64,000 bases of DNA from Nemertoderma westbladi (taxonomy: Eukaryota; Animalia; Xenacoelomorpha), in contig JAUCBJ010000128.1 of NCBI GenBank assembly GCA_032718475.1, forward strand, positions 9,514 through 73,513, read 5' to 3'. The notes under the pieces were generated by a model that did no database searches, was not told where the DNA came from, and worked only from the letters and a program-made list of their open reading frames with translations. Each line of letters begins with the position of its first letter. Position 1 is the first letter of the stretch. Shown one piece after another: positions 1,068 to 40,043 of the stretch. A program made the position numbers and the translations under genes.

Positions 1068-2321
1068 TGTACGCGCTTTTGAAGACCTTTAGCAGTTTAA
1101 CCTGCCAAAATTTATATGTCTTTTGGTTTATAAATAGACTTTAGAAGTTGACAAATATTTAATACCAATAAACACAACATTAGCAGAAGCCAGCCTAGTG
1201 CGCGTCCATTCACCCGCTGGATATACCCGGGAGACTGGATTCTGAGGGCTTAGATTATTATTGCAGTGTAAGCTTACTGTATTATTCGATTGATCGTTAA
1301 TAAATAATTTCTGACTAATATTATTCACTTTCGGGAAATATTAACAGTTCCTTTAGGACGTGGCGCTCTATCTAGGTAAACAGAGATATGACTTATACTA
1401 ATCACAACGGCAAGTCGGTAAGGCTTATGATTCACGTATGAGGCGCATTCTTTAGGAAATGCTTAGTTATCAGTCACAATCAGGCACACTACCGGTAACA
1501 CACAATACTGCTCACTAATTTGCCGACCGTCAATGAATTTTATCATATATAAAGCGAACAGCAACGGACTCATGTAGTGCTTATCAAATAGCATTAAATT
1601 CACTACAAACCACAACAATATAAGTCGCAATCGCTATATATAACCCGTCTCTCTAACCTGTAGTGTATCAAGAAAATTGGGAAATTTGGGTTCTTTATAG
1701 ATGTTCTCCAAATAATATTCAACCAACTGATACAAAATATGACAACAGTAAATAGCAGTATAATAATGTATGTTGAACAGATAATGTAAGACTGAAGTGA
1801 GATAAGATAACAGTTATACGCTCTATAATTTAAACCTACTAATGTTTCTTCTAAAGTATGAAAACGAGTTGACTCTAGAGCCGGTGTTCCTGGCCTAGAT
1901 AGAAACAACACAACAGTATCACGAAAAACAGTAAGACTGAACACTCCTAGCATGATCTGCCAAAATATCTCCACATCGACAGAAAAAATCGCTCTGATTG
2001 GCTGTTAAGCTAAAGAAAGAACCATGTGTCCAATGGCCGTTTCCATGTCAGCAACCAGCTGTTAGATGTCGTAAGCTGAATCATCAAGGCTAAGCTGTGC
2101 CAGGGTATTTGGTGCATTGCGGGTTTTTTGCCTTACCATGTCCGCCAAAGCACACATATAGAAGAATGACGTTTATGTCCGTTAAAACACCTATAACGGT
2201 ACCTTGCGGGCGAGGGGGATATATATATATAGTTAGAGAGCTTTTTAGAGTATTCCAGCGCCTGGGGGAAAACTGGATTGCAAAGCAAAAGGGCCAGTTA
2301 TATCCCACAGAAGCTTTTACA
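1068..2321 (-). repeat. 3' LTR of element A (1254 bp)
   Basis: Direct repeat of 24619-25870, differing by about 7 substitutions plus one AT-dinucleotide indel by eye. A short purine tract GGGAGCGG (2329-2322, minus strand) immediately precedes it. Confidence 0.97.
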
Positions 2322-8400: not shown

Positions 8401-8813
8401 TGGGAACGACAGGCCTAATTATTTCAGGCTCATCAACTATAGTAGGGAGTTTTTTGACCTTAATAATTTGGTCTGTAGGTTCTATACTACTTAAGTCCGT
8501 GCTAGCTAGTTGTCTTCTAACAGCTGGGGGCAAATCAGGCAATTTGTGACGGTAAGATGTTTTTCTACGCCTGCTTAGACGAGATCTATTTCCTCCGCCT
8601 TCAGGATCGGTGGTTTCGCTTTCCTCCGATGATGTATATCCCTGGCGTTTGGGAGTAGATCTTCTCATCATCTGCATGTGACTAGCAGTTAACTGTTTAT
8701 TTATGTTGTCTTGCGTCTCTTGCAGATTTTCCAACTCTAGTTGGGTAGTCTCCTCAGACGCTCTCAGTTCTGCTTTTGCCACCGCTGCCTTTCTTTCTGC
8801 TTCTGCTGCTGCC
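5479..8813 (-). pseudogene. Element A gag-protease with an RNase H remnant (3' part)
   Basis: ORFs 7706..8782 and 5479..7734 are joined by a frameshift at the KFNGD..WLPF motif. CALC..H..C, CYNC..GH..C and CAKC..HH knuckles and ALLDSGS are present. After the protease the frame jumps straight to QWRHCLGTINPADIASRG, with no YxDD and no integrase. Confidence 0.9.
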
Positions 8814-9612
8814 TGTGCCGGATACTGATCACAATACGATGTATATTAGATAGGTTATACAGTATGTTTTAGCTCGTATAGGTCGTGCCACCGGAAGTGA
8901 CACGATGCCCGGGCTGATTCAGGCTTTGTGATAGCAGCTATCTGAGGATAGTAGAACAGGCTATCTATTGGCATTGCTTTTTTACCGCTCTGCTACATTT
9001 CCTGTTCAGTCAGTAGGTGAGCCTACCGACCGGTAGACTCACTGACAACTGTGCGACATTTATAGCTAGGCTTTGCCTTAGCTTACAGTCTTAAGCTAAG
9101 GGCCTATTTACCCGTAGGTCCGACAGACCGGCTTCTGTTTGCATAGTGCAGCAGTGGTTGGATGTGCTGTCAGGCTGTGTGTGTCTGACATTTTGTCAGA
9201 CACGAACTTTATCTGTGAGTTCGCTTGTAGAATATACCGTATGGTTTATGGTATATTTATATTTCTGTATTCGTGCCTTGTCAGTCATTATATTATACGA
9301 CCTGAGACCGCAGTAGTTTACATGAGTTTTTTCATATTAGATGGAGTCAGTAGCCTCAGCCTGACAGTCCCCGTAGCTAGCGCGTCTTTATCCATACTTC
9401 ACCCCTAGCAATTGCCATCCTTTACCGATCCGCCGATAGGACATTCAGACTCAGGGTCTGACTATTAGACTGCAGACCCCGCGTCTGAATGTTGGACTAT
9501 CGTTCCCAGTTATTGGGCCTCAGGATAGTCGGACCAAGCCGACTATCGGACTGTTGTATTTATTTATTGCCAGCGGTCGTTCTACTGTTCTAGTTAGCGG
9601 CCATCCGGCACA
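8814..9612 (+). repeat. 5' LTR of element B (799 bp)
   Basis: Ends TGTGCCGGAT...ATCCGGCACA (10-bp inverted termini). It differs from the 3' LTR by one substitution and a 7-bp duplication by eye. Confidence 0.98.
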
Positions 9613-9624
9613 GTAAAAAAGCAA
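9613..9624 (+). promoter_or_regulatory. Non-tRNA primer-binding site of B (GTAAAAAAGCAA), complementary to LTR 8974-8985
   Basis: Abuts the LTR end with no TGG. It is the exact 12-nt reverse complement of TTGCTTTTTTAC at 8974-8985. The priming function is inferred. Confidence 0.8.
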
Positions 9625-10084
9625 CCTTTACAGCTTTAAACAGTCATTAGACTGTCTGACTGTTAGACTGTTAACAAAAAAGCATCCTTTCTGCCTTTAA
9701 ACAGTCATTCTGTCATTAGGCTGTTAGTAAATAAAATAATTAGGGCCTAAGCATTAAAATACATTTCAGCATTTATATTTAGGCCTAAGTCTGTAAGTCT
9801 GAAAAAAGTGTATTTCTGTATTTTTACAAATAATTCCAGAATGTCAGGCTAAGCCTTTAGCCTTCTTCCGTCTTCAGCCTTAGTACTGAAGTACCGTAGT
9901 CAGCAGGTCAGGTAGTAACTTTTCTATTGCCCAGGCATATATCAGTAGCGCTGTAGCCTATATATTTGAAATTACCGGTAGGCCAACACTAAACTTTAAG
10001 TAGTACCGAGTTTTCGGTTGTTTAAATTAAATTGCCAAATTGTTTATTGTTTACTTGTTGCAATACCAGAATACCGGTACTAAA

Positions 10085-13000
10085 ATGTCAGCTCCAGGTG
10101 CCGAGAGCAGTAGTAGCACAAGTTCTGGGACAACAAACTCGGTGCTAGCGATGCAGCCACTTGATGAATCCCAGCCTCCTTCCCAAGGGGATATTGTCGG
10201 GTTGGATGGACTGGATATCCCTTCATTAAGATATAAACTACGTGCACATAAGGGTAAGTTTACCAAAATATATAGTGAATTTATGGAATGTCACCAACGA
10301 ATTACCGTAGAGCAGCGCAAAATACGGCTATTTACAGCCAAGCAAACATTGCATGATATTAATTGTATATGGTCAGCCTTACTTGTAAAATTTCAATTGC
10401 AAGGAAATGAGGACCAACATGCAATTTCGAAAGTGGAACGCGCAGAATATCATGAGATGCAGTGTGCCAAATTACGCGAAATATATAGCCATTTACAGGG
10501 ACCAATAATTCCTGTACCGGTATTAGGAGACACACCTAGTCCCGTTCATATCGATGAGACACCATATTATAATGATACAGTCGAACAAGTCAGTCAGGGT
10601 GATTCAAGTAGACAGGGACACACATTTACCGCGAGTACACCTGCCAATTTTAATGATATGGATACATTGGTGGACATATCAACAGGGGCAGGCGCAGGGG
10701 GCATTAGTGAAGAGACACCAGTTTGTCCCATTGCTGTAGACATTTCTGCAGCAGTGTATTCACTGAATAAAGGCCCATTGATACCTGATAGTGGTAGTGA
10801 ACCAGTTAAATCACCCATAGACGCTGGTGTCGTTTGTACTGAAATGGTGATGGGGTCTAGGGCTGTACCAAATGACATTACTGCCAGGAATGTTACTGGT
10901 AGTGATACTAGTTCACAAATCAAACCATCGGATTCGGTTTCACAACATAGTTCACAGCTTTCTGAGAAATCTAAATCATTAAGGGCTCTCAGGAGGCATC
11001 AAAGGGCTTTGCTTAAGACTAAACAAATGGAAAATAACCTACGTTTAGCTGAGGCGCTTGATAGTGAAGAAACGAAACTCAAAACGGCTCAACTAGAGGC
11101 AGAGGCAGTTGCTGCTGCAAATAAACGTTTAGTCGATCTCAAACTTGAGCAACAGCAATCTAGGGCTAAACGCCAACTTGCTGTCACTGAGTCTCATAAT
11201 GACCTAGAACGGGCTACATTAGAGGTCCTTTTGTCGACAGATGAACCTGAAGTTTTAGCTGCTTTAGAGGCAGGTTCAGATCCATCTAACTATAGATCAC
11301 CAATTATGGCTTTATTTAATAAGCCTAAAGTAGACACTAATCCTTGTATAGTCACATTTCAGCAAGATGGTGGTGAATTATCCTCTGTTGGTCCCATAAG
11401 ACAGGAGGACACCTACATGCCTATAAACCCTAGGCCTAGGCCACTATCTCCTATTGTTTCTATTCTACACAACCAACCATTTAATTCGACTCAAAATCGT
11501 AATGACATGTCAGTTGAAGTCGATATGCAGGATTCTAGTCCTGAATATAAATTGACTATGCCAACTGTGGACGAGGGAATGCAAACTGATACTCACTTTG
11601 TTATTACCCGTTCTACACAGGTTACACCTACTGAAATTGTCACTGCATTGCCCCCTGGCCCCATGACACGGTCTTTGGACAACAGGGATATCTCTGAATC
11701 CCAATATAGTGGCAGTCAACGATATCTTCACTATACACATACGAACAATGACGGTGATGATTATAGCCACACAAATATAGATAATGTAAATACATTTGTG
11801 CCCAGCTATAATCCAAGCACTACAATTTCAAATATAGCACAGCCATCACAAAAAACCCACAGAGTGGACCCAATAGTGACAACTGTTTCCCCCCAGGCCC
11901 AGATGTCCTCCCGCAGTTGGGCTGTACCTGATAAATTACTTGATAAATTGTCAGAGCCTATGTTTAACTCTTTATTGCAGGGCTCACAACCTATGCCTAT
12001 AAACCATTTAGGAGTAGGTGATGTGTTTAAGCCACCATATAAGGGTGGAATTAGAAGTGATACACCATCAAATGTACAAAAATTTTCTACACCTGAGAAT
12101 TTTTACCATTTCGATTGTTTGAAAGCAAACCCTGTGCTTAATTCGAGTCCAGGATTCCAGATACCTGTTCCTGGGGCACAAAATTCACCTGAATCGCCAA
12201 TTAACAATTGGCCCATACCTGAACCATTACAGAACCCTTTTCATGATCCAGGTCACCGTGTGGGGATGGGATCTACTCCTAATATCGAATCACAGATGTG
12301 TGAAGTCATGACACAGGTTATGAATGTTAGTGCCATGAGTGTAAAGGCTATTGAAAGGCTAAACACTAAGCTTTCATTGCCAAAAATGGAAGTGCCAAAA
12401 TTTAATGGAGAAGCTAGTGGCTATATAAATTTTGTAGCTAGTTTTATTTCTTATATTGAATCTCAAGAATTAAATGAAATGGAAAAATTCATGTGCTTAA
12501 CACAATATTTGGGCCCAATTCCCCTTGGTCTGGTTAAAGGGTTTTTAGGTTTGCCAGGTGGGTATAAAGCCGCTTGGGATGCCTTGCATGGAAGGTATGG
12601 CCATCCGAGTGTTATAGTTGAGAGAATTATAACAGAATTGACAGAAAAAGTTGATCTGAACTCTGGTTCAGAAACACAACGTAGGTTCAAATTGCAAAAT
12701 TATGCAGACAAGATCTCACAAATGGTTTTGGTTTTGCAATATTTTAAATCAGCGGATGAAATGAATTCATCTACCAATCTGCGAAGGGTTGCCGAGAACC
12801 TCGACATTCGAATGTATGAGCGGTGGAAACGCAAAGTTTATTATATTAGACAAAACCACAACCGTGAACCTAGATTAACTGAACTTGCAGAATATATAAA
12901 ATGTGAAGCACAGATTGTTAATGATCCTGTTTACGTTGATGTAGGTGGTGGCTACAGGCCAAACCAAACAGCTAATGTACCAGGGTCAAGTCAATCCAGT

Positions 13001-16000
13001 AAACCAAGTCCACAGCGAGTGTCCACAATAAATAACTTAAATTCAACACCAATGGCTACATTAAATTATGTGTCAACCACTGGTGCACCATCTGGTTATA
13101 GAGGGACCAGCAGAACTAGGGGAGGTGGAAATCGACCTTTTAGGCCTGCTTCAGCTTCAGCACATGGACCTGACCCATCCACACGATCAAACGATCCTAT
13201 GAAGTCCCCAGAACCAGTTCAAGGAACTTCTAATGGAGCAGGCTATAAAGAGGAAAATACATCCACAATTCCAAAGCGAGTATTAAATTGTTCTTATTGT
13301 GAACTAGAAGGACATACAATATCCCATTGCTCAAAGTTTAATCATTTGGACATTATCCATAAGGTGGCATGGTACCACAGTGGGGATGTATGTCACTATT
13401 GTGTGGAAAGGGGGCATAGGAATACTGTCTGCCCAAAATATTCAAAAATAACACGCAAACCAATCTGTGAGCATTGCCAAGGTGCTCACCACTCTGTCCT
13501 TCATTGGATTCTTGGTTATATAGAGGATACCAAGAAATCAGCTAAAATTAAAACATTTAGGAGTGAATTGGTTTCAAGTAATTCCATGGCTGAGATTCCA
13601 ATTTCAGCTGAAACAAATAAATCTGGTACATATAGTATCACAAATCATGATGTGACAATATTGCGTTGTGATAAGCAATCGCATATTAATATGGAGATGT
13701 GGTTGTCTGTAGTACCCGTAACTATTGACATAAATGACAAACGTCTTAGTACTTTTGCCTTGCTGGATTCAGGTTCAACTCATACAGTTTTGCATGCTAA
13801 GGTATTGCAGTTCATGAATGAAGTTCCGGATTCCCAATCTTTGATGACAATCAAAGAGGTATTATCAATTAGTGTGCATCCTATTGCTTCGATAGCTTGC
13901 TCTATTAGGCCTTTAAAAGGTCGCCCCGCAGTAGATGAAACATTTATTACTAAAGTTTCTAACACTTTGGTGTTAGACAACCTTCAACAGACAAGAGTCC
14001 CAGATCTGGCAAGTATAGATTTGTCAGCATATCCAGATTTCCAGCCATATCTGGATCAACTAGTTCCTTCAGGTATTGAGTTACCAGAAGTTACTATAAT
14101 CATAGGTCGGGATGCTGGTTACATTCATGAACATGCAATAGTTCAAGAAACAAGAGAAGGCCCTACTATTGTGCATACACCATTTGGGTATGCCTTAGTG
14201 GGACCAATTCCATCTGTTAAAGTGAATTGTGAAATCAGGCATCTTGAAATATCCAGTTATGATTGGGTGTCTGTAGTTAAACAACAATTAGGTTTGGAAG
14301 GTTATACTAATGATGACAATCAGGTTCTGAAACCAATGTCCAACGCTAAGGATGAGGAAACCGTCTTATCACGGAGCGATGAACGAGCATTATCCATACT
14401 TAAGGAAACAACTACCTTAGATAATGGTCGGTATACTGTAGGAATGCTCTGGAATCAAAATCCTCCTCAATTAATAAATAACTATCCATTGGCGAAGCGT
14501 CGACTGGATGGCTTAATACGTCGTTTAGAAAAGTATCCAGCCAAATATCAACAATATCATAATCAATTGTTAGATTATGAAACTGCAGGATATGCAGTAA
14601 AGTTATCATTGGAAGAATTTAAAACACATTCACCACAAACTTATTACCTACCTCATCATCATGTTGAACATGATAGTAAACCTGGTAAGATCCGCATAGT
14701 TAATGATGCGGCAGCCATCTATAAAGGGATGTCATTGAACTCCCAATTATTAGATGGTCCACCACAAATTATACCCCTCATTGGAGTATTAATACGTATT
14801 CGTTTAGGGAGCATTGCTTTCTGTTGCGATATAGAGGCAATGTTCCACCAGATTGGTGTAACTAGGGAGGACTCCGACAGCCTTCGGTTTCTATGGAAGC
14901 CACCTAAGGGTGATATGGTTGTCTATAAAATGGTTCGACACCCATTTGGAGCGCGTGATTCACCTTGCATAGCAGGTAACACTGTTAAACAGTGTGGGAA
15001 AGACCATAATGACTTATTTGTTTCTGATGTTGCTAGAGTTATTGATGAGTCATTTTATGTTGATGATGGTCTACCATCAGTTGACTCAGTGGAAGAGGCC
15101 ACTCAATTAGCGCATGACCTAATTGATTGTCTATCCTTAGGGGGTTTTAATCTTAGAAAATTCCAGTCAAACAGTAAAGAGTTTCTGGCTTCCATGGCTT
15201 CAGATGCTCTCAGTCCTAAAGTTGATCTAGACCTTGACCACTTGCCAGTGACTAGAGCCCTTGGTGTGGTTTGGGACCCACAAGCTGATATATTTACCTT
15301 TGATGTGAAGGTTAAACAACGTCCTTATACTAAAGCAGGTTGTCTTAGTAAGTTTGCGTCAACATATGATCCTCTGGGGTTCCTTGCACCATTTCTAGTT
15401 CAGGGTAAACTAATAATACAGTCTATCTGGAGAGCAGGGTGTGACTGGGATGATAAAATCCCAATGGAACTGCAAAGAGCGTGGATAAAGTGGGAGAATC
15501 AACTTCCTCTTCTTAATGATGTAGAGATAGACCGCCTCCTGCGGCAAGATCTTCCATCTAGTTGCAACTATCAATTGCACTTGTTTTCTGATGCCTCTGA
15601 TTATGCATATGGGGCTGTGGCATATATACGTGCTGAGTATAATAGGGATGTACGTGTAAACATATTATACTCAAAGAGTCGTATTGTTAATATGGCTTCA
15701 ATTACTTCTACACCTCGACTAGAGTTAGAAGCCGCCGTATTACTGACAGACATCATTGTGATGCTGCGACTTGAGTTGCATCTCGGTGATGTACCAGAAT
15801 ATTTCCATACTGATTCTACAGTAGTATTAGGGTATATTCGTAACCCTACATGTGTTTTGAAACGCTATGAAGCAACCCGTGTTAATAAAATTGTCTTGAG
15901 AACTACTCCTAACTCTTGGCATCATGTACCAGGAGTTTTAAACCCGGCTGATGATATCAGTCGTGGATTATCCGTCAAGAACTTGCTAAATAAATCCCTT

Positions 16001-17201
16001 TGGTGGCATGGCCCACCATACCTTACGGATTTACCATCCACTTGGCCACGGCCAATTACCGACATTGATATTCCTACAGGGGATAATAATCCTGAGGTTA
16101 ATTTATCCAATTTTGATCCGGGGGTCTATGTTGGTAACATTAACACCCTAGGACTAACTTCTTTAGATCGGCTGATCTATGAAGAGGGGGCTATCTGCCA
16201 TGAGGGGGCAGATACATGCAACTTACAGTGTGCATATGTTGCAAACCTCTCATCTAGCATTGTCTATGACTGCGAGAATGAGACATGGCGCTCTGTAGTT
16301 GACTTAGACATCAATGACAAAGATGACGTCACGCTAGAAAATGATCATCTAGCACCCATTGAGATAAATCTTCACAAAATTAACTTAGCTAAGGATATGT
16401 CTATTGATGATAGACTTAAGTATTTCATCAATAAATATTCATCCTGGTATTTGCTGTGTTTACTTACAGCGTGGCTTATACGGTTGTTTGATTGGCATGT
16501 CTGGTGCCTCGGAGTCAAACAAAAGAAAGTATTAGAAACCGAAATGAGCGTAAATGCACGTGTGACAATTGCAGAATTGCGTAAATCTGGCTCATGTATC
16601 TTGCGTTATGTTCAGAAACAGACATTTAGTAAGGAATATGAATGCCTTAAGAGAGGTCATTCAGTCCCAATAAATAGTAAATTACGTAACTTAGTACCAC
16701 ATATAGATACAGATGGTTTAATTCGAGTTTCCAGTCGTATAAACGCATCTAATAAGCCTTATACAACTGCAAATCCAATCATTCTGCCAGCGCGCCATCC
16801 AGTGACCTCAGCGATTATTCGTTATACACACACTAGAATGGGTCACTTAGCAACCAATGCAACTCTGTCAGAAATTAGGCGGAAGTATTGGATCATTGCT
16901 GGACAGAGTCAAGTACGACAAATTATAGGGAAATGTTATCGCTGTAAACAAACACGCGCAAAACCAATGACACAAATTCAGGCTAATTTGCCTGAAACCA
17001 GAATACAACCATACCACCCACCTTTTGAACATAGTGGGTGTGATATGTTTGGTCCTTACACTTTAGAGCGGAGAGCAACACGTTCTACTTTGTATGACAT
17101 TCGTTATGGCATGATATTTACATGTCAAGTAACTCGTGCCGTACACCTGGACCTTGCAGCAGATGCATCATCTGATGCATTCATTAATTGTTTACGTCGC
17201 T
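10085..17201 (+). CDS. Element B gag-pol polyprotein, 5' part (Gag, zinc knuckles, aspartic protease, RT, RNase H, integrase N-terminus)
   Basis: Uninterrupted ORF of ~2370 aa. Motifs: PKFNG gag motif, ALLDSGS, YLPHH, DIEAMFHQI, PFGARDSP, FYVDD, LHLFSDASDYAYG, PRLELEAA, NPADDISRG, integrase HHCC and GCDMFGP. Confidence 0.96.
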
Positions 17202-18690
17202 GAGCAACAGGTATGAGGCTCTTGCCTCTGAGGCGGCAGATCACTGTGAGGGCTATACTGCCTTTACAGAAGCAGTTAAGTTAGCAGCTGCAGAAACAGT
17301 TCCTGTATACCCTCGAAACAGGAAAAGGGCCCCCTGGACTGACAACAAAATTCAGAAGTGCCGAAATGACCTTCATAAGGCGCAGAAAGAGTCCCGACTC
17401 AAACAGACTACAGCGGCCAAGAATGCAGTTAAAGCTGCATCTAGGTCCCTGAACAGGCAGTACTCTGCTAATCTACAGGAGCTAATAAACCAACAGGTTG
17501 ATGCCATCAATGATGCTGACGACAGCAGGCAATCATCCCAGGCATGGAAATCGATCAATCTGCTTACTGGGCGGAAAAGCCAACCAACCACCAAGGTTAA
17601 GGCTGAATCACCAGCCGATCGCCTCAATGGTTGGAAAGCCCACTTTGAAAAGCTCCTCAATAATGACAGGGTATTGCCTGATAACTTTATAGAAGTAAAA
17701 GTGTCTGAGTCTGTACTCCCAGATATTCCCATTGGCGATATCTCCTTTGCAGAAGTGAAGGCTGCTGCAAAGAGCATTAAGACCAATCGTGCCAGTGGTG
17801 TAGATGGTGTTCCCCCTGAGGTCTTTAAAATACCTGAGTGTTTAAAGCTCATCTATCCCATCATAGTAGACATGTACCGTACAACAAGAGTCCCACAAGA
17901 AATGAAAACAAATAAGTTGGTGCCAGTTCCCAAGAAGGGCAACCTAACACTCTATGGTTCTTTTCGGGGAATCTCATTGATCTCGATTGCTGCAAAACTA
18001 TACAATAGAATTCTATTAAATCGCATCAGGGATCCCATTGAGAGACTGCTACGTGGAAATCAGAATGGGTTCCGTAAAGGTCGTGGGACCATGGAGCCCA
18101 TTTTGGCACTTAGAAGGATAATTGAAGAGTTATCAAAAAAGAAAGACAGGCATCTGGCTGTTATCTTTGTTGACTTCTTCAAGGCCTTTGATTCAGTCTC
18201 TCGCTCACGTATGTTCAGCATACTTTCATTATATGGGATTCCTGATGAAATTATTGCAGCAATCAGATCAGTATACGATGGTTCGACAACATTTGTGTCT
18301 ACTGTTGACGGTGACACAGAACCATTTGAAGTGTTATGGGGCGTCCTCCAAGGAGACACACTTGCACCATTCTTGTTCATTATTGTGGTTGACCCCAAGC
18401 TTGACACTAGAACAAAATCGCCTCCGCTTTGCAGGACATTGCTTTCGCCGTGAGGACCAGCCAGTGCATAATCTTGTACTTTGGCAGCCTCATGGAGTGA
18501 ATAAGCATGGAGGACAGCCCATGACTTTCTTGAGACGCATCTTAAAGGACACTGGCCTTAAAGATGCGGATGATCTAGCAAATGTCATGGGTGATAGGGA
18601 GTTGTGGCGGTGCAATTTTGTTGACAAGCCGGCATAGCATTCTTAAAAATGCAGCTGCAATGCAGCATGCCGATCCTAGTAGTAGTAGTA
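17202..18690 (+). mobile_element. RTE-clade LINE, 5'-truncated and internally deleted
   Basis: TSD GTTTACGTCGCT (17190-17201, 18691-18702) and a (TAG)n tail. RT motifs are QNGFRKGR, FVDFFKAFDSV and GVLQGDTLAPFLF. The RTE-type C-terminus RLRFAGHC..LVLWQP..MGDRELWR is present, but the YADD block is absent. Confidence 0.93.
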
Positions 18691-18702
18691 GTTTACGTCG
18701 CT

Positions 18703-19433
18703 TCACAGGACGTAGAGGTGGAGTATCCCATATGTACTCAGATAATGGCTCAAATTTTGTGGGCGCCGAGTCACAACTGGGATACTATAGAGCTTTAGTG
18801 AGTGAACCTGGGGTTGCAGATTTTCTTCGTAAAAGTGGTATAGAATGGCACTTTGGAGACCCTTACGCTCCCCACGAACGAGGTTTCATTGAACGCCTTA
18901 TTGGCATAACTAAACAAATTTTAATGTCAACATTGGGTGACCGGCTTGTAACCGAGGATGTGTTAATGACATTCCTCGTTGAAGTAGAGAATATTCTTAA
19001 TAGTCGGCCTTTGACAGCATTATCTGACGACGCAAATGATTTTGAGCCACTCACACCCAACCATATTCTCTGTAACAGACCCGCAGAGAATGCACCAATA
19101 GCTGAAACAAATGCTTCAGATTTTGGTAGTCGCCATACTTACCTTCAAACTGAGGTTCTCCGTGACCTTTTTTGGAGAAGATTCAACACGGAATACATTA
19201 CATTACTCCAAAAGAGACCGCTCTGGAATAAAGTTGAGCGAAACATTCAAGAAGATGACGTTGTTCTTATTACTGACCCCGACAAACCTAGGTCCAGATG
19301 GTCTTATGGTAGGGTAATATGTACATACCCAGATGCCAATGGGATTGTACGCAATGTGCGTGTGCGTGCCCAGAATGGACATGAATATAAACGTCACATT
19401 CACTCATTGTGTCTGCTGGAGCAGGCAGAGTAA
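18703..19433 (+). CDS. Element B integrase core and C-terminus (continuation after the LINE)
   Basis: Removing the LINE and one TSD restores NCLRRFTGRRG in frame. YSDNGSNF, ERLI, LNSRPL, LTPNH and W..GRV motifs follow. Confidence 0.95.
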
Positions 19434-19617
19434 TGAGGCGATTACAAAGTCTTGTTAGACGTATTTACTTCAACACATTTCGTTTTTTAAATGTACGTTT
19501 AAATTTGTCAACTGTCAGTGGTATGCATCGCTGGCACAAATTAAAAGGTAATAATAAGTTAGTTTAATTAAGCTTTATTAGTATAGGCCATGTAGAGCTA
19601 CTAGTAGGGACTGCTAG

Positions 19618-19811
19618 GGCGCTTACAAGCCCGAAGATAATGTGGGTATGGAGAAAAGGGGCGTTTACAAGCCCAAAGATATGTGGGTATGGAGAAATGG
19701 GGCGTTTACAAGCCCAAAGATATGTGGGTATGGAGAAATGGGGCGTTTACAAGCCCAAAGAAAGATATGTGGGTATATGGAGAAATGGGGCGTTTACAAG
19801 CCCGAAGATAT
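19618..19811 (+). repeat. ~40-bp minisatellite in the 3' UTR of B (~5 copies)
   Basis: Tandem units of GGGCGTTTACAAGCCCAAAGATATGTGGGTATGGAGAAATG. Confidence 0.92.
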
Positions 19812-20702
19812 GATAGGGACTTCATATGGGTCACTTAAAAGTACAATAGAAACCCATCAAATAATGGAGATAATGATATGATACAATATGGGCTAAAGGA
19901 TACAACTAATTGTTGAAGGATGCCTAGCTCATATATACATATATATTGCTCAGATGATTGAATTTGCAAGTTATTTTATATTTATGTTTATAATGATGAA
20001 ATATAGACAATTTGATCTTTCGGGCCATACTAAATTCCTTTGGAACCGTTAGCATTAGGATTAACTGCTTAAGTCCATTTTTTTTTATTGTGTTCATTAC
20101 TTAATTTCAAGTAAATCATCTTTACATGTCCTACTACTTGTAGTTTAGAGTTGCCTTTATTATTACAAATTTGTGTATGGTGGTGGGATATATTTTGTTT
20201 ACAAGTGATCTCACAGCTCACAATTTTTGTAAAGTTAATCGAAAACATATTTGTAATTTAAAACGCCAACCATGTGTTTTACACACATGAGCCATATGTA
20301 GCCTGAAATATTTTTAAATAGATAAAAGACAGTATGGTGATCATTAATCTTGCGCAATACTCCTTTGGAAGTAGTGTGCGATTTATCTCTTGCGAAATAT
20401 ATTTTATATATTATTTGGGATACTAAAGGAGCTGAGTATTGCTGTGTTGATTCTTATCAGATTTTAATTATATGTTTCTAATCTACCTATACATCTTGGT
20501 CCCATTGTGGCTGGTTGTGGATTCTTAAACGATACCTGACAACCCAATGTCATTGTATGTCCGCCCCTTACATTTAAGGATCTCTAAATACTAACTGCTG
20601 ATTGGGCAACACAGCATATACTTAGAAAGCAATATGTATCCTCGTTTTTATATATTTTGTCATGGTTGGATTTCATTCTACGCCTGCAAATCCAGAGGGG
20701 GC

Positions 20703-21494
20703 TGTGCCGGATACTGATCACAATACGATGTATATTAGATAGGTTATACAGTATGTTTTAGCTCGTATAGGTCGTGCCACCGGAAGTGACACGATGCCCG
20801 GGCTGATTCAGGCTTTGTGATAGCAGCTATCTGAGGATAGTAGAACAGGCTATCTATTGGCATTGCTTTTTTACCGCTCTGCTACATTTCCTGTTCAGTC
20901 AGTAGGTGAGCCTACCGACCGGTAGACTCACTGACAACTGTGCGACATTTATAGCTAGGCTTTGCCTTAGCTTACAGTCTTAAGCTAAGGGCCTATTTAC
21001 CCGTAGGTCCGACTGACCGGCTTCTGTTTGCATAGTGCAGCAGTGGTTGGATGTGCTGTCAGGCTGTGTGTGTCTGACATTTTGTCAGACACGAACTTTA
21101 TCTGTGAGTTCGCTTGTAGAATATACCGTATGGTATATTTATATTTCTGTATTCGTGCCTTGTCAGTCATTATATTATACGACCTGAGACCGCAGTAGTT
21201 TACATGAGTTTTTTCATATTAGATGGAGTCAGTAGCCTCAGCCTGACAGTCCCCGTAGCTAGCGCGTCTTTATCCATACTTCACCCCTAGCAATTGCCAT
21301 CCTTTACCGATCCGCCGATAGGACATTCAGACTCAGGGTCTGACTATTAGACTGCAGACCCCGCGTCTGAATGTTGGACTATCGTTCCCAGTTATTGGGC
21401 CTCAGGATAGTCGGACCAAGCCGACTATCGGACTGTTGTATTTATTTATTGCCAGCGGTCGTTCTACTGTTCTAGTTAGCGGCCATCCGGCACA
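20703..21494 (+). repeat. 3' LTR of element B (792 bp)
   Basis: Direct repeat of 8814-9612. Confidence 0.98.
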
Positions 21495-22353
21495 CTGCCG
21501 CTGCCTTCGCTGCTTCTGCTTCTGCCGCTGCCTTTGCTGCTTCTGCTTCTGCCGCTGCCGCTACCTTTGCCGCTTCTGCTTCTGCCGCTGCCGCTACCTT
21601 TGCTGCTTCTGCTTCTGCCGCTGCCTTTGCTGCTTCTGCTTCTGCCGCCGTTACTGCTGCTGCTTTTCAGTCCTCTATCTGTTTTTTCTTTACTTGTTCT
21701 TCTTGGACTCTAGTGAGGCGGAGTTTTTCATCAAATTCAGCTTGGTTTGCAGCTAACATTTCCGCATCGATTGCGTCCAACACAAGCTTGGTTCCTTCAC
21801 TATTGGGGCGAAGTCCAGACAGTCGTCTCCTCAACTCTTCGTCTCCTAGGAATCGCTGATAGTCTGACAGATAGATGTCAATGGCGTCTCTAGTTCGCGG
21901 CTTCTCTGCTGTTAATTCGCTTTCCACTTCGCTTTCCACTTGAGAAGAAGTGGCGTCGGTTGATTCTTCATAGGTTGGCCGTTCATCATAAACCGTATCC
22001 GCCATCTTCGCTCCGCGTTCGGGCGTCCGCTCAGCAGTATCCGAACTACTGGAGCTATCGGGCCGCTGAGAACTAGGTTCTAGGCTAGGATGTTGCTGCT
22101 GTTTGACAGCTGCTTCTTGATCCCGCTTGACTTGGGCCCGAGTACCGATGATAGACCTACGTTGTTCTACTAGCCTAGGGTCTGACACTATTACTGTAGG
22201 GATGGCCTTTTTGACAATAGTAGGTGACTTCGACTTGGATCTAGGATGTTCTATACTTGGATCTGGGTCACTGATCTTTTTAAGACACTGTCTAACAGTC
22301 ATTCTAACACTTTCTAAGAGACTATCCGACAGTGATTGGGTTGTGTCAGACAT
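21495..22353 (-). pseudogene. Element A gag N-terminus, including an AEAEAAK coiled-coil repeat
   Basis: ORF 21667..22353 ends at an in-frame TGA. The frame continues as KAAAVTAAEAEAAKAAAEAEAAK... up to the B insertion and resumes at 8813 (AAAEAERKAAVAKAELR). Confidence 0.85.
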
Positions 22354-24552: not shown

Positions 24553-24607
24553 CAGGTTTACCGGTCGACCGGTACTTTCAACTTTATTGCTTACTGCAAT
24601 AAAGTCA

Positions 24608-24618
24608 ATAACTGTTAT
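24608..24618 (-). promoter_or_regulatory. Non-tRNA primer-binding site of A (ATAACAGTTAT on the minus strand), complementary to LTR 25368-25358
   Basis: Abuts the 5' LTR with no TGG. The plus strand reads ATAACTGTTAT at 24608-24618 and its reverse complement ATAACAGTTAT at 25358-25368 (also 1807-1817). Confidence 0.7.
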
Positions 24619-25870
24619 TGTACGCGCTTTTGAAGACCTTTAGCAGTTTAACCTGCCAAAATTTATATGTCTTTTGGTTTATAAATAGACTTTAGAAGTT
24701 GACAAATATTTAATACCAATAAACACAACATTAGCAGAAGCCAGCCTAGTGCGCGTCCATTCACCCGCTGGATATACCCGGGAGACTGGATTCTGAGGGC
24801 TTAGATTATTATTGCAGTGCAAGCTTACTGTATTATTCGATTGATCGTTAATAAATAATTTCTGACTAATATTATTCACTTTCGGGAAATATTAACAGTT
24901 CCTTTAGGACGTGGCGCTCTATCTAGGTAAACAGAGATATGACTTATACTAATCACAACGGCAAGTTGGTAAGGCTTATGATTCACGTATGAGGCGCATT
25001 CTTTAGGAAATGCTTAGTTATCAGTCACAATCAGGCACACTACCGGTAACACACAATACTGCTCACTAATTTGCCGACCGTCAATGAATTTTATCATATA
25101 TAAAGCGAACAGCAACGGACTCATGTAGTGCTTATCAAATAGCATTAAATTCACTACAAACCACAACAATATAAGTCGCAATCGCTATATATAACCCGTC
25201 TCTCTAACCTGTGGTGTATCAAGAAAATTGGGAAATTTGGGTTCTTTATAGATGTTCTCCAAATAATATTCAACCAACTGATACAAAATATGACAACAGT
25301 AAATAGCAGTATAATAATGTATGTTGAACAGATAATGTAAGACTGAAGTGAGATAAGATAACAGTTATACGCTCTATAATTTAAGCCTACTAATGTTTCT
25401 TCTAAAGTATGAAAACGAGTTGACTCTAGAGCCGGTGTTCCTGGCCTAGATAGAAACAACACAACAGTATCACGAAAAACAGTAAGACTGAACACTCCTA
25501 GCATGATCTGCCAAAATATCTCCACATCGACAGAAAAAATCGCTCTGATTGGCTGTTAAGCTAAACAAAGAACCATGTGTCCAATGGCCGTTTCCATGTC
25601 AGCAACCAGCTGTTAGATGTCGTAAGCTGAATCATCAAGGCTAAGCTGTGCCAGGGTATTTGGTGCATTGCGGGTTTTTTGCCTTACCATGTCCGTCAAA
25701 GCACACATATAGAAGAATGACGTTTATGTCCGTTAAAACACCTATAACGGTACCTTGCGGGCGAGGGGGATATATATATAGTTAGAGAGCTTTTTAGAGT
25801 ATTCCAGCGCCTGGGGGGAAACTGGATTGCAAAGCAAAAGGGCCAGTTATATCCCACAGAAGCTTTTACA
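24619..25870 (-). repeat. 5' LTR of element A (1252 bp)
   Basis: Direct repeat of 1068-2321, upstream of the minus-strand gag. Confidence 0.97.
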
Positions 25871-27795: not shown

Positions 27796-28102
27796 AATCA
27801 TGGAAATATGGTCGGACTGGAGACATGTAGTATGTACGATGATGTATGTTGTATGACATTCTTGTATGGTATTACTTACTTTACTTTAGTCCACACAGTC
27901 TGGCAGTATACTGGTATAGATACAGTTACTACAGTATACTGTACTACTGTCTGTCTATAGTTAGATACTGTACAGCTGTATGTAAAGTACAGTATAATAA
28001 TAATTGTTTTTTGTTCCATTTGTTTGATCTGGTAATTGCAGTACTACAGTCTGACAGTTCTGCAGTAGGCCAACCTCAGTAGGCCAACCTCATTAGTTGA
28101 TA

Positions 28103-28795
28103 ATGGCGACGGTAACACCTCTTGTCGGACTCGTATTGGGTGGGACAGGGGCTACTGGCAAGGCTCTAATAACCCAACTATTGGAGGATTCCAATTTCAC
28201 TAAGGTCATAGTCGTCGGCAGAAGAACAGCGTCGTTGTCGGACGATAAAGTCAAGGAGATTATTATAGACTTCGACCGAATAAAGGATCACTCCAGTGCG
28301 TTTACTGGAGCGGATGTTGCGTTTTGTTGTCTCGGTACAACGCGCGGAAAATCCGGCGTTGAGGGTTTTAAAAAAGTTGATTACGAGTTTGTAGTTAATT
28401 CAGCCGAGGCGTTGAAAACAGGTGGATGCAAACATTTCCATCTGGTCACTTCGGCAGGTGCGAACGCCAACTCCCGACTGCTGTACCCCCAGACTAAAGG
28501 TCGCGCCGAGGAGGCGGTCAGGGCGCTAGGGTTCCCCCGAGTTAGTGTCTACCACCCCAAAATGTTGCTGACTAAACGCGATGAATCCAGACCGGCGGAG
28601 TCCCTCTTCCAGTCTCTGTTGGCCCCGGTCGCCTGGGCCTCTCCCACCCTACTCACCACTAGGTGTAGCACTCTCGCGCGCGCTATGATTAACAACTGTT
28701 TTAACTCCCTCCCCGGTGATGATACTTACGAGGTTGTTGACAACGCGAAGATTCACGTTTTAGCTGACGGTTCTAGTAAAGATAAATCCACATAA
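28103..28795 (+). CDS. HTATIP2: Oxidoreductase HTATIP2/TIP30/CC3-like NAD(P)-binding atypical SDR, intronless
   Basis: GGTGATGK Rossmann motif, DVAFCCLGTTRGKSGVEGFKKVDY, GGCKHFHLVTS.GAN, LYPQTKG..EE. The 230-aa ORF is intact with ATG in an ATAATGG context. Confidence 0.92.
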   Translation: MATVTPLVGLVLGGTGATGKALITQLLEDSNFTKVIVVGRRTASLSDDKVKEIIIDFDRIKDHSSAFTGADVAFCCLGTTRGKSGVEGFKKVDYEFVVNSAEALKTGGCKHFHLVTSAGANANSRLLYPQTKGRAEEAVRALGFPRVSVYHPKMLLTKRDESRPAESLFQSLLAPVAWASPTLLTTRCSTLARAMINNCFNSLPGDDTYEVVDNAKIHVLADGSSKDKST

Positions 28796-30720: not shown

Positions 30721-31602
30721 GCCGTAGCTTATCTGAGCCGATATTCAAATCCAAATACTTGTGTATATTAATTAACTTGAATATAATCCTGTTATTATTA
30801 GAGAAACTATAAATACGACAATATAATATTGAATTTAAAAGCAATTACAGTAATTGAATTGTGTTGTAGGTAAGCGGGAAATTTAAAAAGTATTACAGTT
30901 CTCGGTTTTATTTTTCTATTTAGAACTACCGGTACCGGTAGGGTAGTCAGGAAATGCTTAGTTGTTAACTTTATGGACCGGTATACTAGCTGTATAGGCA
31001 GGGCCTTATCAAACCTTGTCTAAAGGTACTTTTATCGGTGTCCGAACGCGAACTGCCGAATTCGCTATGAGAATTTGGGAGTCAGGGGTGGGACGTACTA
31101 GGTAGCGGTACTAGCATTAGCGTAGTTGTACCAGTCTGCCATTCAGCAGTTCAGGCTGTCAGGAGTACAGGAACGGGAGTAGATATAGTCTTTTCTAACC
31201 AAAACTTGCTCACTGAAGAACTAGCGATTAACAACTTTAACAGGGTGGGTATAAATTAAACGCTGCGCCTACTACCGACAACCAACGCCGACAACCATTA
31301 TTAAAGATAATTAATGTTATTTATTAATTTACTGATTGAGGGAAATGAGCAGGTTACAGTGTAAGCTTATTCTAACCAAAACGATAAACGAGAGTCACGA
31401 ATTCAGGTTACATTTTCATATTTGCTGTTGTCGGCAGTGGTTGTTGGCGAGGCGTTCACACCCATAACACTGTAACAGGTTGACTTTCGTATATATTCTG
31501 TACAGCTTCTGTAGATCTATCAGCCTATATCTGTATATGTTCGTGCATATTTGAGCTTGAGCCTTCGTTTCTTTCCACTTAAATCTCACCATTCCTGCAA
31601 TC

Positions 31603-33267
31603 ATGGTTGAGAAAAATGTTTTAAAACGAGGAAAACCAACTATCGGTGCTTTCTCTAACAAACGGAAGAAAAACCGTTACTTTATATTAAAGAAAAATGA
31701 AAACAAGACAAAACTTTCAGCCTTGAAGACTCGACACAATAAATTACTGAAACTCCGCGATAAAGCGCTTCTTACAGCCCACGAGAAGGCCAATAAACTA
31801 AAAGTAGCGAAACACTCTAGGGGCGAACCGGTCCCATTGGACGAGTTAGCAACCGCCAGTTTACGTTCCAGCGTGCGAAGCCGCGAGGATAAATACACCA
31901 AGGCGGTGAACCAACTGGTGCGAGCGGATATGCTTCTGACGGAAACATCGGGCTATTTAATACCGGATGAGGGCCAACAAACAGCCGAGATATCGCAGGA
32001 AGCCATTAGGGATGCTGTCGACATCGCCAGCGCAAATAAATCATTTAATTTACAGCTGCAATTCGGACCTTATCACCTGGATTACACGCGCAACGGTCGC
32101 TTTATGTGTCTCGGCGGCGCAAAGGGTCACGTTGCTGCGTTCGATTGCCTCACAAAGGATTTACTATTCGAGATTAACGTTATGGAGAGCGTTTCGGACA
32201 TTAAATGGCTTCATCAGGAGACCATGCTAGCGGTCGCGCAAAAAAAATGGCTCTACATATATGATAACAATGGAATCGAGTTGCATTGTCTTAAAACCTT
32301 CCCGGGAGTAACTCGTATGGAATTCTTACCTTTCCACTTCCTATTGGCCACGACTAGCGAACGCTCTTACCTTAAATACTTAGACACTTCTATAGGACGT
32401 GAAGTTTCCTCTATAAACACTAAACTCGGTCGTTTATCCGTTATGTGCCAGAATCCGGACAACGCCGTGGTCCATCTCGGACACGCGAACGGCACTGTGA
32501 CGTTATGGAGTCCGAGCGTGGCGACGCCGCTCGCCAAGATGTTGTGCCACAAAACCCCGGTGCGAGGGGTCGCGGTAGACCCCACGGGTCGTTACTTAGC
32601 AACCGCGGGTCAAGACGCTAAATTGAAATTGTTTGATATTCGAGGTTTTAAAGAACTTAAAGAGTTTCGGGTTGTTGAATCGGTTTCGTGTTTGACTTTT
32701 AGTCAGCGGGGGTTGTTAGCCGCTTCCAGGGGGTCTGTAGTCGAGGTTTACCGCTGGGAGACTGATCAAGGTTCGCCGTACTTACGACACGAATGTGACG
32801 ACACTGTGGCCTCATTGCGTTTCTGCCCGTTCGAGGACGTTCTCGGGGTTGGGCACCGACGTGGGGTCGATAGTCTGTTAGTGCCGGGGAGCGGGGAGTC
32901 CAATTACGACGCGTTGGAAGCCAATCCGTACCGGGGAAAGAAACAACGACAGGAGATGGAGGTTAAACAGTTGCTGGATAAACTGAGTCCGGATATGATA
33001 ACTCTGGATAATACGGTGCTCGGAAAGGTTGATGTACGGGAAATAGGGGAGGAAACTGGGGTTGTTAAACGTCCGGGGAAGTTCGTACCGCGTTGGAAGA
33101 AAAAGGGGAAAGGGTCAGCGGGAAAACGTGAGAATATAAAGCAAGGAGTTAGGGAGAAGAGAGTTAGGGAAGAGGTTGATAAGGTTGTGGATGTTACTGA
33201 GGGAGGTGGGGGGAGTGTAAGGAAACCGTTTGTTCCGTATAAAACTACGTTAGATCGTTTCCTGTGA
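31603..33267 (+). CDS. WDR46: WD repeat-containing protein 46 (Utp7/BING4; SSU processome), intronless
   Basis: FGPYHLDYTRNGR, LGGAKGHVAAFD, AVAQKKWLYIYDNNGIELHCL, GHANGTVTLWSP and the BING4CT motif FCPFEDVLGVGH...LLVPGSGESNYDALEANPY..KQRQEMEVKQLLDKL. The 554-aa ORF is intact. Confidence 0.96.
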   Translation: MVEKNVLKRGKPTIGAFSNKRKKNRYFILKKNENKTKLSALKTRHNKLLKLRDKALLTAHEKANKLKVAKHSRGEPVPLDELATASLRSSVRSREDKYTKAVNQLVRADMLLTETSGYLIPDEGQQTAEISQEAIRDAVDIASANKSFNLQLQFGPYHLDYTRNGRFMCLGGAKGHVAAFDCLTKDLLFEINVMESVSDIKWLHQETMLAVAQKKWLYIYDNNGIELHCLKTFPGVTRMEFLPFHFLLATTSERSYLKYLDTSIGREVSSINTKLGRLSVMCQNPDNAVVHLGHANGTVTLWSPSVATPLAKMLCHKTPVRGVAVDPTGRYLATAGQDAKLKLFDIRGFKELKEFRVVESVSCLTFSQRGLLAASRGSVVEVYRWETDQGSPYLRHECDDTVASLRFCPFEDVLGVGHRRGVDSLLVPGSGESNYDALEANPYRGKKQRQEMEVKQLLDKLSPDMITLDNTVLGKVDVREIGEETGVVKRPGKFVPRWKKKGKGSAGKRENIKQGVREKRVREEVDKVVDVTEGGGGSVRKPFVPYKTTLDRFL

Positions 33268-36859: not shown

Positions 36860-39800
36860 TGTGGGGCGAGCCACGAAGTGAGTGAGCCTTAGCGTAGTGG
36901 TACCATTAATCAACCTGTGGGGCGAGCCACGAAGTGAGTGAGCCTTAGCGTAGTGGTACCATTAATCAACCTGTCGTTCTGTCGTTCTGTCGTTCTGTCG
37001 TTCTGTCGCGTTCAATTTTAAACGTTAATAACTCGGCCAATCTTTGATGAAATCTATCCAAACTTGGTACACATGTTGTTTGGCAAAAGTTTAGAAATTT
37101 TCCAAGTAGAATTTCAGTGTGGCCTTCGAGAAGCTAAGATAATAGCAGTTAATTAGTTAATTAAGTTATTACGGTAAAAACACCATTTTCAACCTGCCTT
37201 TTAAAGGAAATTAATTGTTTTACAGTATAAGATTTAAATAATTATAATTAAAAATTATACAGATGTAATCCCCATACGCCATTCTATTATAGTTTTTAAT
37301 TAGTTCAAGTGATTTGCTTTAATAATTGTGTCTTTAATTGATCTAAAGTAATTAAAACGGCAAAAAAAATTTATTCTCATTAAATACTGCTCATTTATTG
37401 GCCAACATGCTGGTACATAGATGGGATGTGTGTGTCATTCCCAGTTGCTGGGAATGATTATTGGTCAAGTCTCTGCTGCTGGCTGGGAGTTGTTGCTAAG
37501 ACTAACCAGAGAGGAATAGTAATAGACAACCAGTATTGCTATTCCAGCCCAGACAGCATTCTTTAAATTCACTATAAATGTTGTATTGCTATCTCAGGTG
37601 AATGACAGATATCATAACATAAATACTATCCATGGCATGGCTGTTGTGTAGGCTTCTGAAATAGTTTATTCCACAATGTATATGTCTGGTTATTTTTTAA
37701 TTGAATTTTTGCAAAGTAGTAAAATTAATGTTCTTAAAAATAATATTATTATTTTATATGTAACCTAGGAAATTAGCTACATTTTTTCGCTGCAGCTTTA
37801 AGAGTGTACATTAATTTAATATTATTTCAATACCCATATTACTACATCGGCATAAGATGCGTTGGCGTTGTATCACACATCTCCACATATCACACATATC
37901 CACATAGATGTATCAACAGTTACTCGCACAGTTTCGAAACTTCGCATAGTTATAACTGTATAAAGATCGTCAGTCTGCGTTTAGGAAAAATATTTTATAA
38001 CAAAACTGGACAAGCGACGAGCGCAACGAGGCATATAATGAAGACGAGTACTGCGTTGACTAAATTATTATATAAACCACCTGGCTTCACATATTGATCG
38101 CATCCCTAGTTATTATTATTATAAAGAACGTCCTAGCCTGCGTTTAAGAAATATATTTAAATACAAAACAGGACGAACGCAACGAGGCTTATAATGAATA
38201 CGAGTACTGCGTTTATTATATTCCTATAAACCACCTGGCTTTGCATATTGAACGTGCGATTGGAAATAAGTTCGTGCTACCCTTCCGTGGGTGGTAGATG
38301 TCGCGGTTATGTATTGGTGGTTGGGAAGGGTGGGGGGGGGGGGGGGGATTAAAAGGGGTGAACACGTACTGTCCCCCTTTCTTTGATTGATTGGTGGTGT
38401 GGGTAAATTTCTCAAAACCTGATTTTGTGATACAGTCGCTCAATTTTAATTTGTATCTCATAACTGGGCCTCGTGCTGCGCGAAGGCCCCACGAACGTGT
38501 CGTTCTGTCGTTCTGTCGTGTTCAATTTTAAACGTTAATAACTCGGCCAATCTTTGATGAAATCTATCCAAACTTGGTACACATGTTCTTTGGCAAAAGT
38601 TTAGAAATTTTCCAAGTGGAATTTCAGTGTGGCCTTCGAGAAGCTAAGATAATAGCAGTTAATTAGTTAATTAAGTTATTACGGTAAAAACACCATTTTC
38701 AACCTGCCTTTTAAAGGAAATTAATTGTTTTACAGTATAAGATTTAAATAATTATAATTAAAAATTATACAGATGTAATCCACATACTCCATTCTATTAT
38801 AGTTTTTAATTAGTTCAAGTGATTTGCTTTAATAATTGTGTCTTTAATTGATCTAAAGTAATTAAAACGGCAAAAAAATTTATTCTCATTAAATACTGCT
38901 CATTATTGGCCAACATGCTGGTACATAGATGGGATGTGTGTGTCATTCCCAGTTGCTGGGAATGATTATTGGTCAAGTCTCTGCTGCTGGCTGGGAGTTG
39001 TTGCTAAGACTAACCAGAGAGGAATAGTAATAGACAACCAGTATTGCTATTCCAGCCCAGACAGCATTCTTTAAATTCACTATAAATGTTGTATTGCTAT
39101 CTCAGGTGAATGACAGATATCATAACATAAATACTATCCATGGCATGGCTGTTGTGTAGGCTTCTGAAATAGTTTATTCCACAATGTATATGTCTGGTTA
39201 TTTTTTAATTGAATTTTTGCAAAGTAGTAAAATTAATGTTCTTAAAAATAATATTATTATTTTATATGTAACCTAGGAAATTAGCTACATTTTTTCGCTG
39301 CAGCTTTAAGAGTGTACATTAATTTAATATTATTTCAATACCCATATTACTACATCGGCATAAGATGCGTTGGCGTTGTATCACACATCTCCACATATCA
39401 CACATATCCACATAGATGTATCAACAGTTACTCGCACAGTTTCGAAACTTCGCATAGTTATAACTGTATAAAGATCGTCAGTCTGCGTTTAGGAAAAATA
39501 TTTTATAACAAAACAGGACAAGCGACGAGCGCAACGAGGCATATAATGAAGACGAGTACTGCGTTGACTAAATTATTATATAAACCACCTGGCTTCACAT
39601 ATTGATCGCATCCCTAGTTATTATTATTATAAAGAACGTCCTAGCCTGCGTTTAAGAAATATATTTAAATACAAAACAGGACGAACGCAACGAGGCTTAT
39701 AATGAATACGAGTACTGCGTTTATTATATTCCTATAAACCACCTGGCTTTGCATATTGAACGTGCGATTGGAAATAAGTTCGTGCTACCCTTCCGTGGGT

Positions 39801-40007
39801 GGTAGATGTCGCGGTTATGTATTGGTGGTTGGGAAGGGTGGGGGGGGGGGGGGGGATTAAAAGGGGTGAACACGTACTGTCCCCCTTTCTTTGATTGATT
39901 GGTGGTGTGGGTAAATTTCTCAAAACCTGATTTTGTGATACAGTCGCTCAATTTTAATTTGTATCTCATAACTGGGCCTCGTGCTGCGCGAAGGCCCCAC
40001 GAACGTG
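36860..40007 (+). mobile_element. Helentron/DINE-1-like non-autonomous element with a duplicated 56-bp head and two head-to-tail 1508-bp bodies
   Basis: 5' TGTGGGGCGAGCCACGAAGT occurs twice (36860, 36916), followed by a (CTGTCGTT)n microsatellite and near-identical units ending CGTGCTGCGCGAAGGCCCCACGAACGTG at 38499 and 40007. The same termini occur at 46772-48657. Confidence 0.7.
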
Positions 40008-40043
40008 TTTGTACTGTAGGGGTAATTACTGTAGCGTTTGTAC

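Follow-up and report, generated by a model that had tools for sequence, protein, structure and literature searches.

A BEL/Pao retrotransposon with a primer-binding site complementary to its own LTR: candidate self-priming, with a primer often predicted to be built by splicing, in a broad group of BEL/Pao elements

The window, i.e., the whole stretch of 64 kb of Nemertoderma westbladi DNA that was analysed, contains an LTR retrotransposon, B, that is nested in the gag region of another one, A (Table 1). A single substitution and a 7-nt indel distinguish the two LTRs of B. The integrase core of B is split by a LINE-type fragment of about 1.5 kb, which may belong to the RTE clade and which lies between 11-nt direct repeats at positions 17191 and 18692. 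The initial annotation had described B as recently active and otherwise intact; B is a young copy, but not an intact one, since the LINE fragment interrupts its integrase. A non-coding 3′ region of 1.25 kb (19434–20689), with 41-nt tandem repeats at 19596–19812, follows the last coding segment of B.

Table 1. Coordinates of the features of elements A and B in the window.
Feature	Position	Strand	Remarks
3′ LTR of A	1068..2321	-	
5′ LTR of B	8814..9612	+	799 bp, TG...CA; TSD CTGCC at 8809-8813
12-nt block complementary to the PBS of B	8974..8985	+	predicted self-primer and start of R; predicted start site A8973
Non-tRNA PBS of B	9613..9624	+	adjoins LTR, zero spacer
Diverged second copy of the PBS-leader unit	9674..9710	+	61 nt 3′ of the PBS of B; partly complementary to the primer block
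gag-pol ORF of B	10085..17203	+	2372 aa; DUF1759, triple Cys-His box, protease, RT (YVDD), RNase H (Peptidase_A17), N-part of integrase
5′-truncated LINE-type RT fragment in the integrase core of B	17202..18691	+	AGT-repeat tail; RVT_1 E=6.5e-19
Remainder of the integrase core of B and DUF5641	18690..19433	+	
Polypurine tract before the 3′ LTR of B	20690..20702	+	
3′ LTR of B	20703..21494	+	TSD CTGCC at 21495-21499
Non-tRNA PBS of A	24608..24618	-	ATAACAGTTAT on the minus strand; adjoins LTR
5′ LTR of A	24619..25870	-	1252 bp; TSD CTACA
11-nt block complementary to the PBS of A	25358..25368	-	503 nt into the LTR; predicted self-primer

The initial annotation had assigned B to BEL/Pao, and this placement was upheld by the Pfam families, the domain order and the RT-RNase H neighbours of the element. 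B encodes DUF1759, Peptidase_A17 (E=1.6e-40), Integrase_H2C2 and DUF5641, in the order PR, RT, RH, IN, and presents LTRs with TG...CA ends, a polypurine tract, a target-site duplication and, in Gag, the triple Cys-His box that is given with related BEL/Pao motifs in excerpts of PMC554778. The best 120 database matches all carry PF05380. The best relatives are BEL/Pao polyproteins about 43% identical to B, and those that are named come from cnidarians, a nemertean, echinoderms, a limpet, a water flea and fish. With its BEL/Pao families and no detected match to a chromodomain, B falls outside the Ty3/gypsy-type Tf1/sushi elements.

The 12 nt located directly 3′ of the 5′ LTR of B (GTAAAAAAGCAA, 9613–9624) are the exact reverse complement of positions 8974–8985 (TTGCTTTTTTAC), confirming the match that had drawn attention to this element. 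Neither A nor B shows a TGG in the 9 nt that follow the LTR, and the PBS complementary to a tRNA 3′ end of the ICTV description is thus lacking. The complementary block lies 161 nt into the LTR (about 160 nt had been proposed) in an initiator-like context, preceded by GCA and with an A at 8973. The pairing stops at 12 nt, as previously noted, C8986 on the 3′ side of the block being unpaired with the last LTR base, A9612. Only one of the 11,080 12-mers of the internal region of B, that of the PBS, has its reverse complement in the LTR, and just three other positions of the 64-kb window have a 12-mer reverse complement there. Markov estimates of the chance of this match range from 0.6e-4 to 5.7e-4, and the earlier figure of about 1e-4 was therefore about right.

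In the predicted fold of 8973–9720, the block and the PBS of B are paired in both the MFE and the centroid structures. Structure in the LTR RNA is strong (z = −10.6 relative to 20 shuffles), the predicted R+U5 segment, of about 640 nt, is unusually long and no AATAAA is present in the LTR. GT donors (9017 and 9215) and polypyrimidine-AG acceptors (9284, 9573 and others) are found in the LTR 3′ of the primer block; these motifs could possibly delimit an intron inside R/U5. ARAGORN detected no tRNA gene in the 64-kb window, and an Rfam scan of 8700–10200 returned two sub-threshold matches that we judged to be due to chance.

A second case is present in the window. Element A is a BEL/Pao deletion derivative in which the gag-protease region is kept and the RT is missing, and its PBS pairs with its own LTR at 11 out of 11 positions, with the same geometry as in B but with unrelated letters. 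The PBS of A is near-palindromic, which raises the chance value (0.001–0.013 under Markov models, with 33 of 61,443 window positions matching by chance) and makes A weaker evidence when taken alone. In both predicted folds the pairing between block and PBS forms as 10 bp. A perfect 10-bp hairpin (24581–24605, minus strand) directly follows the PBS of A, with another hairpin after it, and the LTR end and the PBS are spanned by a 7+1+7 palindrome.

Elsewhere in the window, BEL/Pao remnants C and D occupy positions 41058–45580 and 51954–60279, with no LTR pair for either of them within the window, and blind scans revealed nothing credible; for D, which is the nearest row to B in our tree, a purine tract and then TG are found near 60349. 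An uninterrupted ORF for a WDR46/BING4-like protein of 568 aa (31561–33267) and an ORF for an NAD(P)-binding protein (28097–28795) are probably host genes. Positions 36988–40008 correspond to a tandem duplication with a 1.5-kb unit (99.5% identity).

An alignment of 48 polyproteins was used to retrieve 78 loci from metagenomes and 20 from genome contigs, to which 10 regions from the same genomes were added (108 loci in all). Twenty BEL/Pao loci (L079–L098) are located in prokaryotic genome bins, most likely as contamination from host animals; no relatives were present among the viral contigs searched. The 5′ LTR end could be fixed at CA or TA by the two LTR copies in 17 of the 108 loci, which were picked by eye, the end of L028 having been reset to the divergence point of its copies after its pairing had been noticed. 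Together with A and B these form a set of 19 elements, from which L013, L030, L044, L055, L084, L087 and L093 were left out, their LTR ends not being fixed by copies. Self-matches were scored with a fixed rule, under which 10 or more nt, counted from a point 0–4 nt after the LTR, had to match perfectly either the LTR or a predicted splice junction that leaves 3 nt or more on either side, using a donor list written after examples had been seen.

Twelve of the 19 elements follow this rule, four with a contiguous block (A, B, L053 and L083) and eight across a junction. Three others (L032, L091 and L119) carry a TGG-type site, and none of these has a self-match; a perfect self-match of 10–15 nt is thus present in 12 of the 16 non-TGG elements. 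Lowering the pyrimidine filter post hoc from 9 to 8 of 14 adds L089 and L127, bringing these counts to 14 of 16 and, overall, to 14 of 19. The rule is failed by L076 (8 nt) and by L079 (8 nt by rule, 10 out of 11 by eye with one mismatch). Controls yielded matches in 1 of 342 cross-pairs, at 5 of 1292 downstream leader positions and for none of the 19 elements when junctions were shifted by 2–3 nt. The same rules were applied to 50 further loci, which remained from 58 after removal of 8 that lacked usable sites; 7 loci of a distant clade and 4 duplicates had been excluded beforehand. A match to the predicted junction of the element itself is present in 13 of the 50, where cross-pairs would lead one to expect 1.3; two of the 13 (L001 and L030) look spurious. 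The initial annotation had called for compensatory changes between PBS and LTR across families, and these are observed: A and most non-TGG relatives whose LTR end is defined pair with different letters, and cross-pairs almost never match.

The lengths of the matches peak at 11 nt, which is the length of 17 of the 26 matches of at least 10 nt, and the paired block ends 0–5 nt from the LTR edge. The primer of Tf1 is 11 nt long, and the modal length found here is equal to it. Probable matches to splice joints outside the fixed rules were also seen in L039, L064, L068, L084 and L086, which depart from them by a GTGTGT donor, an intron of about 1 kb, a 5-nt spacer or an exon-2 half alone on the contig. 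Several candidates were rejected: the TGG labels given by regular expression to L041 (where it sits in coding-like sequence) and L097 are distrusted, ‘16-nt’ matches of L012, L035, L077 and L080 were artefacts of shortened queries, and the contiguous matches of a blind scan of the relatives were dropped as noise.

The sequence that pairs with the PBS is not contiguous in the DNA of most relatives, but is split by a predicted intron (GT...polypyrimidine-YAG) of 67–451 nt within the LTR. Since the match spans the junction, pairing is possible only in the spliced RNA; moreover, the PBS follows the junction of each element, which argues against a host tRNA as partner, because a tRNA would not track junctions. 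In the sister elements L082 and L126, whose pairing spans a predicted intron (338/451 nt), two of the three paired exon-1 bases differ, and the facing PBS bases change too. L045 pairs over 16 nt across its junction, and both flanks are common to the contiguous block of L083, its neighbour in the tree (SH 87). These shared flanks between an intron-bearing and a contiguous form are what a precise intron loss or gain would be expected to give.

We built a FastTree phylogeny of 119 RT-RNase H segments, with a midpoint root and BEL/Pao-type rows only, without Gypsy or Copia outgroup. The self-matching elements are spread across a group of 102 rows (SH 82, not strongly supported), which includes B with the window element D (96) and a subgroup of 90 rows (98) containing fish elements. 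The branch leading to B is long (0.94), with a best identity of 46%, and the larger group through which B is joined to the spliced elements is the one with an SH value of only 82. The TGG-type elements L032 and L050 branch just outside the 102-row group, L091 and L119 far outside. The contiguous forms B, L053 and L083 are scattered in the tree, which is midpoint-rooted, so that no direction of change can be read from it. L120–L125 and L096 (G001) form a distant BEL-like RT clade; no LTR pair was found in the 13–16 kb fetched for L120–L125, and L120–L124 present an apparent promoter and a further ORF 3′ of the integrase.

The position of the paired block suggests that it corresponds to the 5′ end of the transcript, in which case the spliced forms would have an exon 1 of no more than a few bases. 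In 12 of 26 cases the first base of the block is the A of a pyrimidine-A step, and in 10 of 26 such an A is located two bases before the block. Offsets of −2 to 0 from a pyrimidine-A initiator are found in 20 of 25 cases, compared with 36% of background windows (p ~1e-5, for a window chosen after viewing), and B fits this pattern with A8973. The correspondence between the primer and the first nucleotides of the RNA is not clean for all elements, since the pairing of L010 (15 nt) and of L045 (16 nt) reaches to the 5′ side of the nearest initiator, and only about 4 of 26 show a TATA-like motif 25–35 nt upstream.

The block ends at the position required for the primer 3′-OH, replaces the tRNA site, covaries with the LTR of its own element and often exists only in spliced RNA; for these reasons, self-priming is the best reading of the pairing. 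We thus consider it quite likely that B primes minus-strand DNA synthesis in cis with the 5′ end of its own RNA, in a Tf1-like and tRNA-independent manner. This is what the initial annotation had proposed, and the proposal gains support from the pairing retained with different letters in A and in the relatives. On the sequence evidence, this pattern is best read as group-wide among a broad group of BEL/Pao elements, with a primer that would often be built by splicing.

The following scheme can be proposed. Transcription would start at the block or 1–2 nt before it (A8973 in B) and, in intron-bearing relatives, splicing would join a very short exon 1 (3–9 paired nt) to exon 2 to produce the primer. 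The 5′ end of the RNA would fold onto the PBS, and the RNase H of the element would cut 3′ of the duplex, creating a 3′-OH at the LTR edge. Tf1-type self-priming reportedly requires RNase H and retains the primer. Copying into strong-stop DNA would be limited to U5 and to the portion of R that lies 3′ of the cut; the primer region and the intron would therefore be inherited from the 3′ LTR copy. The intron would survive if this 3′ copy stays unspliced, and occasional splicing there would lead to contiguous forms such as A and B, which we infer to be intron-less forms carrying their primer ready-made. Finally, the primer would serve as template for the PBS during plus-strand synthesis, and the match would in this way stay in register without separate selection on both sides. 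In a more far-reaching scenario, a large, mostly aquatic branch of BEL/Pao would have dropped tRNA priming, with the host spliceosome building the primer from an exon 1 of about 3–9 nt. Splicing would affect the cap-proximal 5′ LTR copy alone, and this would mark the correct end for cleavage and allow the intron to persist through the unspliced 3′ LTR; the PBS would be recopied in each cycle from the spliced primer, and A and B would derive from rare cycles whose splicing extended to the 3′ copy and fixed a primer free of introns. We give this combined scenario an even chance.

Covariation cannot separate priming in cis from priming in trans, in which a short, capped and spliced RNA, transcribed from a solo or 3′ LTR or ended by early polyadenylation within the 5′ LTR, would anneal to the PBS of the genomic RNA and be cut there. 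AATAAA or ATTAAA motifs, located 0–93 nt after the paired block in many relatives, could indeed produce short LTR-only transcripts carrying the block. We nevertheless regard an element-encoded primer acting in trans as unlikely, considering that the folds predicted for A and B bring the 5′ end and the PBS together in cis, that the LTR of B is devoid of AATAAA and that Tf1 and Tj1 are described, in the portions of PMC4600332 that deal with them, as using the 5′ segment of their own mRNA. The strong structure of the LTR RNA of B and the further hairpins in the leader of A would also fit a purely structural pairing (involved in packaging, dimerization or a translation switch), with priming by other means, e.g., protein priming or 3′-end foldback. 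Such a role would hardly predict a block that always ends within a few nucleotides of the required primer 3′-OH, that takes the place of the TGG site and is absent from the three TGG elements, and whose length peaks at 11 nt, and it appears distinctly improbable.

A run of six U terminates Pol III transcription, yet such a run would be needed in the primer if B used a host RNA, such as an internal fragment of a tRNA, and its LTR match were incidental. Half-tRNA priming does exist in some copia lineages, according to passages of PMC6317226, but the PBS studied here differs in every family and follows the LTR of its own element, which makes a host primer very improbable. As for chance, the starting point was a single 12-mer found by a reader seeking oddities, but B alone has p < 6e-4 and the match is repeated in A and in 10–12 of 14 non-TGG relatives, against a single success among the cross-pairs; chance is refuted for the group and has a negligible probability for B.

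If self-priming in cis is correct, it would have arisen in all three superfamilies of LTR retrotransposons, and a large share of the BEL/Pao elements of aquatic animals would be self-primed. With a primer built by splicing, reverse transcription would be coupled to host splicing from its very first step; this would create a new host control point and would explain the persistence of an intron inside an LTR. Self-priming would also account for the failure of tRNA-based PBS finders on these BEL/Pao elements, and it predicts exact start sites, exact junctions and exact strong-stop ends.

According to the ICTV, the PBS of Belpaoviridae is 18 nt long and pairs with the 3′ end of tRNA-Arg or tRNA-Gly, and the replication of these elements, primed by host tRNA, is poorly understood (PMC8742986). 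The elements described here resemble tRNA-primed Belpaoviridae (Semotivirus) by PR-RT-RH-IN encoded in one ORF, the triple Cys-His box, TG...CA LTRs, the polypurine tract and a 5-bp target-site duplication; unlike them, A and B have no tRNA-type PBS, whereas L032, L091 and L119 show a TGG-type site. The term ‘PBS’ is absent from the main text of the Sinbad paper, of a metazoan BEL/Pao survey and of a mollusc survey, as far as the available portions of these papers extend. Our search of the openly accessible literature, at the level of listings and abstracts, retrieved no report of BEL/Pao self-priming or of a splice-built primer for reverse transcription.

Self-priming itself is known elsewhere. 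In Tf1, Tf2 and Tj1, the primer is a 5′ segment of the element RNA that anneals to the PBS and is released through cleavage by the RT (PMC4600332 and PMC5341516, in part), and the process has been described for Tf1/sushi, for Tcn1 and for the TAR/Houba lineage of copia (PMC6317226 and PMC6934838, in part). The self-priming predicted from sequence in the TAR, Houba and Osr-1 elements is similar to the one proposed here; these are Ty1/copia elements of plants, and the relevant sections of PMC6317226 mention no intron-built primer. As in Tf1 and Tf2 of Schizosaccharomyces pombe, Tj1 of S. japonicus and the Tf1/sushi and Tcn1 chromoviruses (PMC4600332, PMC5341516 and PMC6317226, in part), the PBS located at the LTR edge is complementary to the LTR of the element itself and not to a tRNA, and here it covaries with this LTR across families; in those known elements, the complementary LTR segment has been proposed or shown to become the primer once cleaved. 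Unlike Tf1, a Ty3/gypsy element, the elements studied here have BEL/Pao domains and no chromodomain match, and their primer is split by a predicted intron in most relatives. Compared with Tf1, A and B also have a predicted R+U5 loop of 600–740 nt, and no U5-leader stem of the Tf1 type is seen in the predicted folds. B would work like the Tf1/sushi chromoviruses without being a member of that group. The mechanism would thus be a known one, in a new variant and in a family said to be tRNA-primed, and its splice-dependent form would be new in kind.
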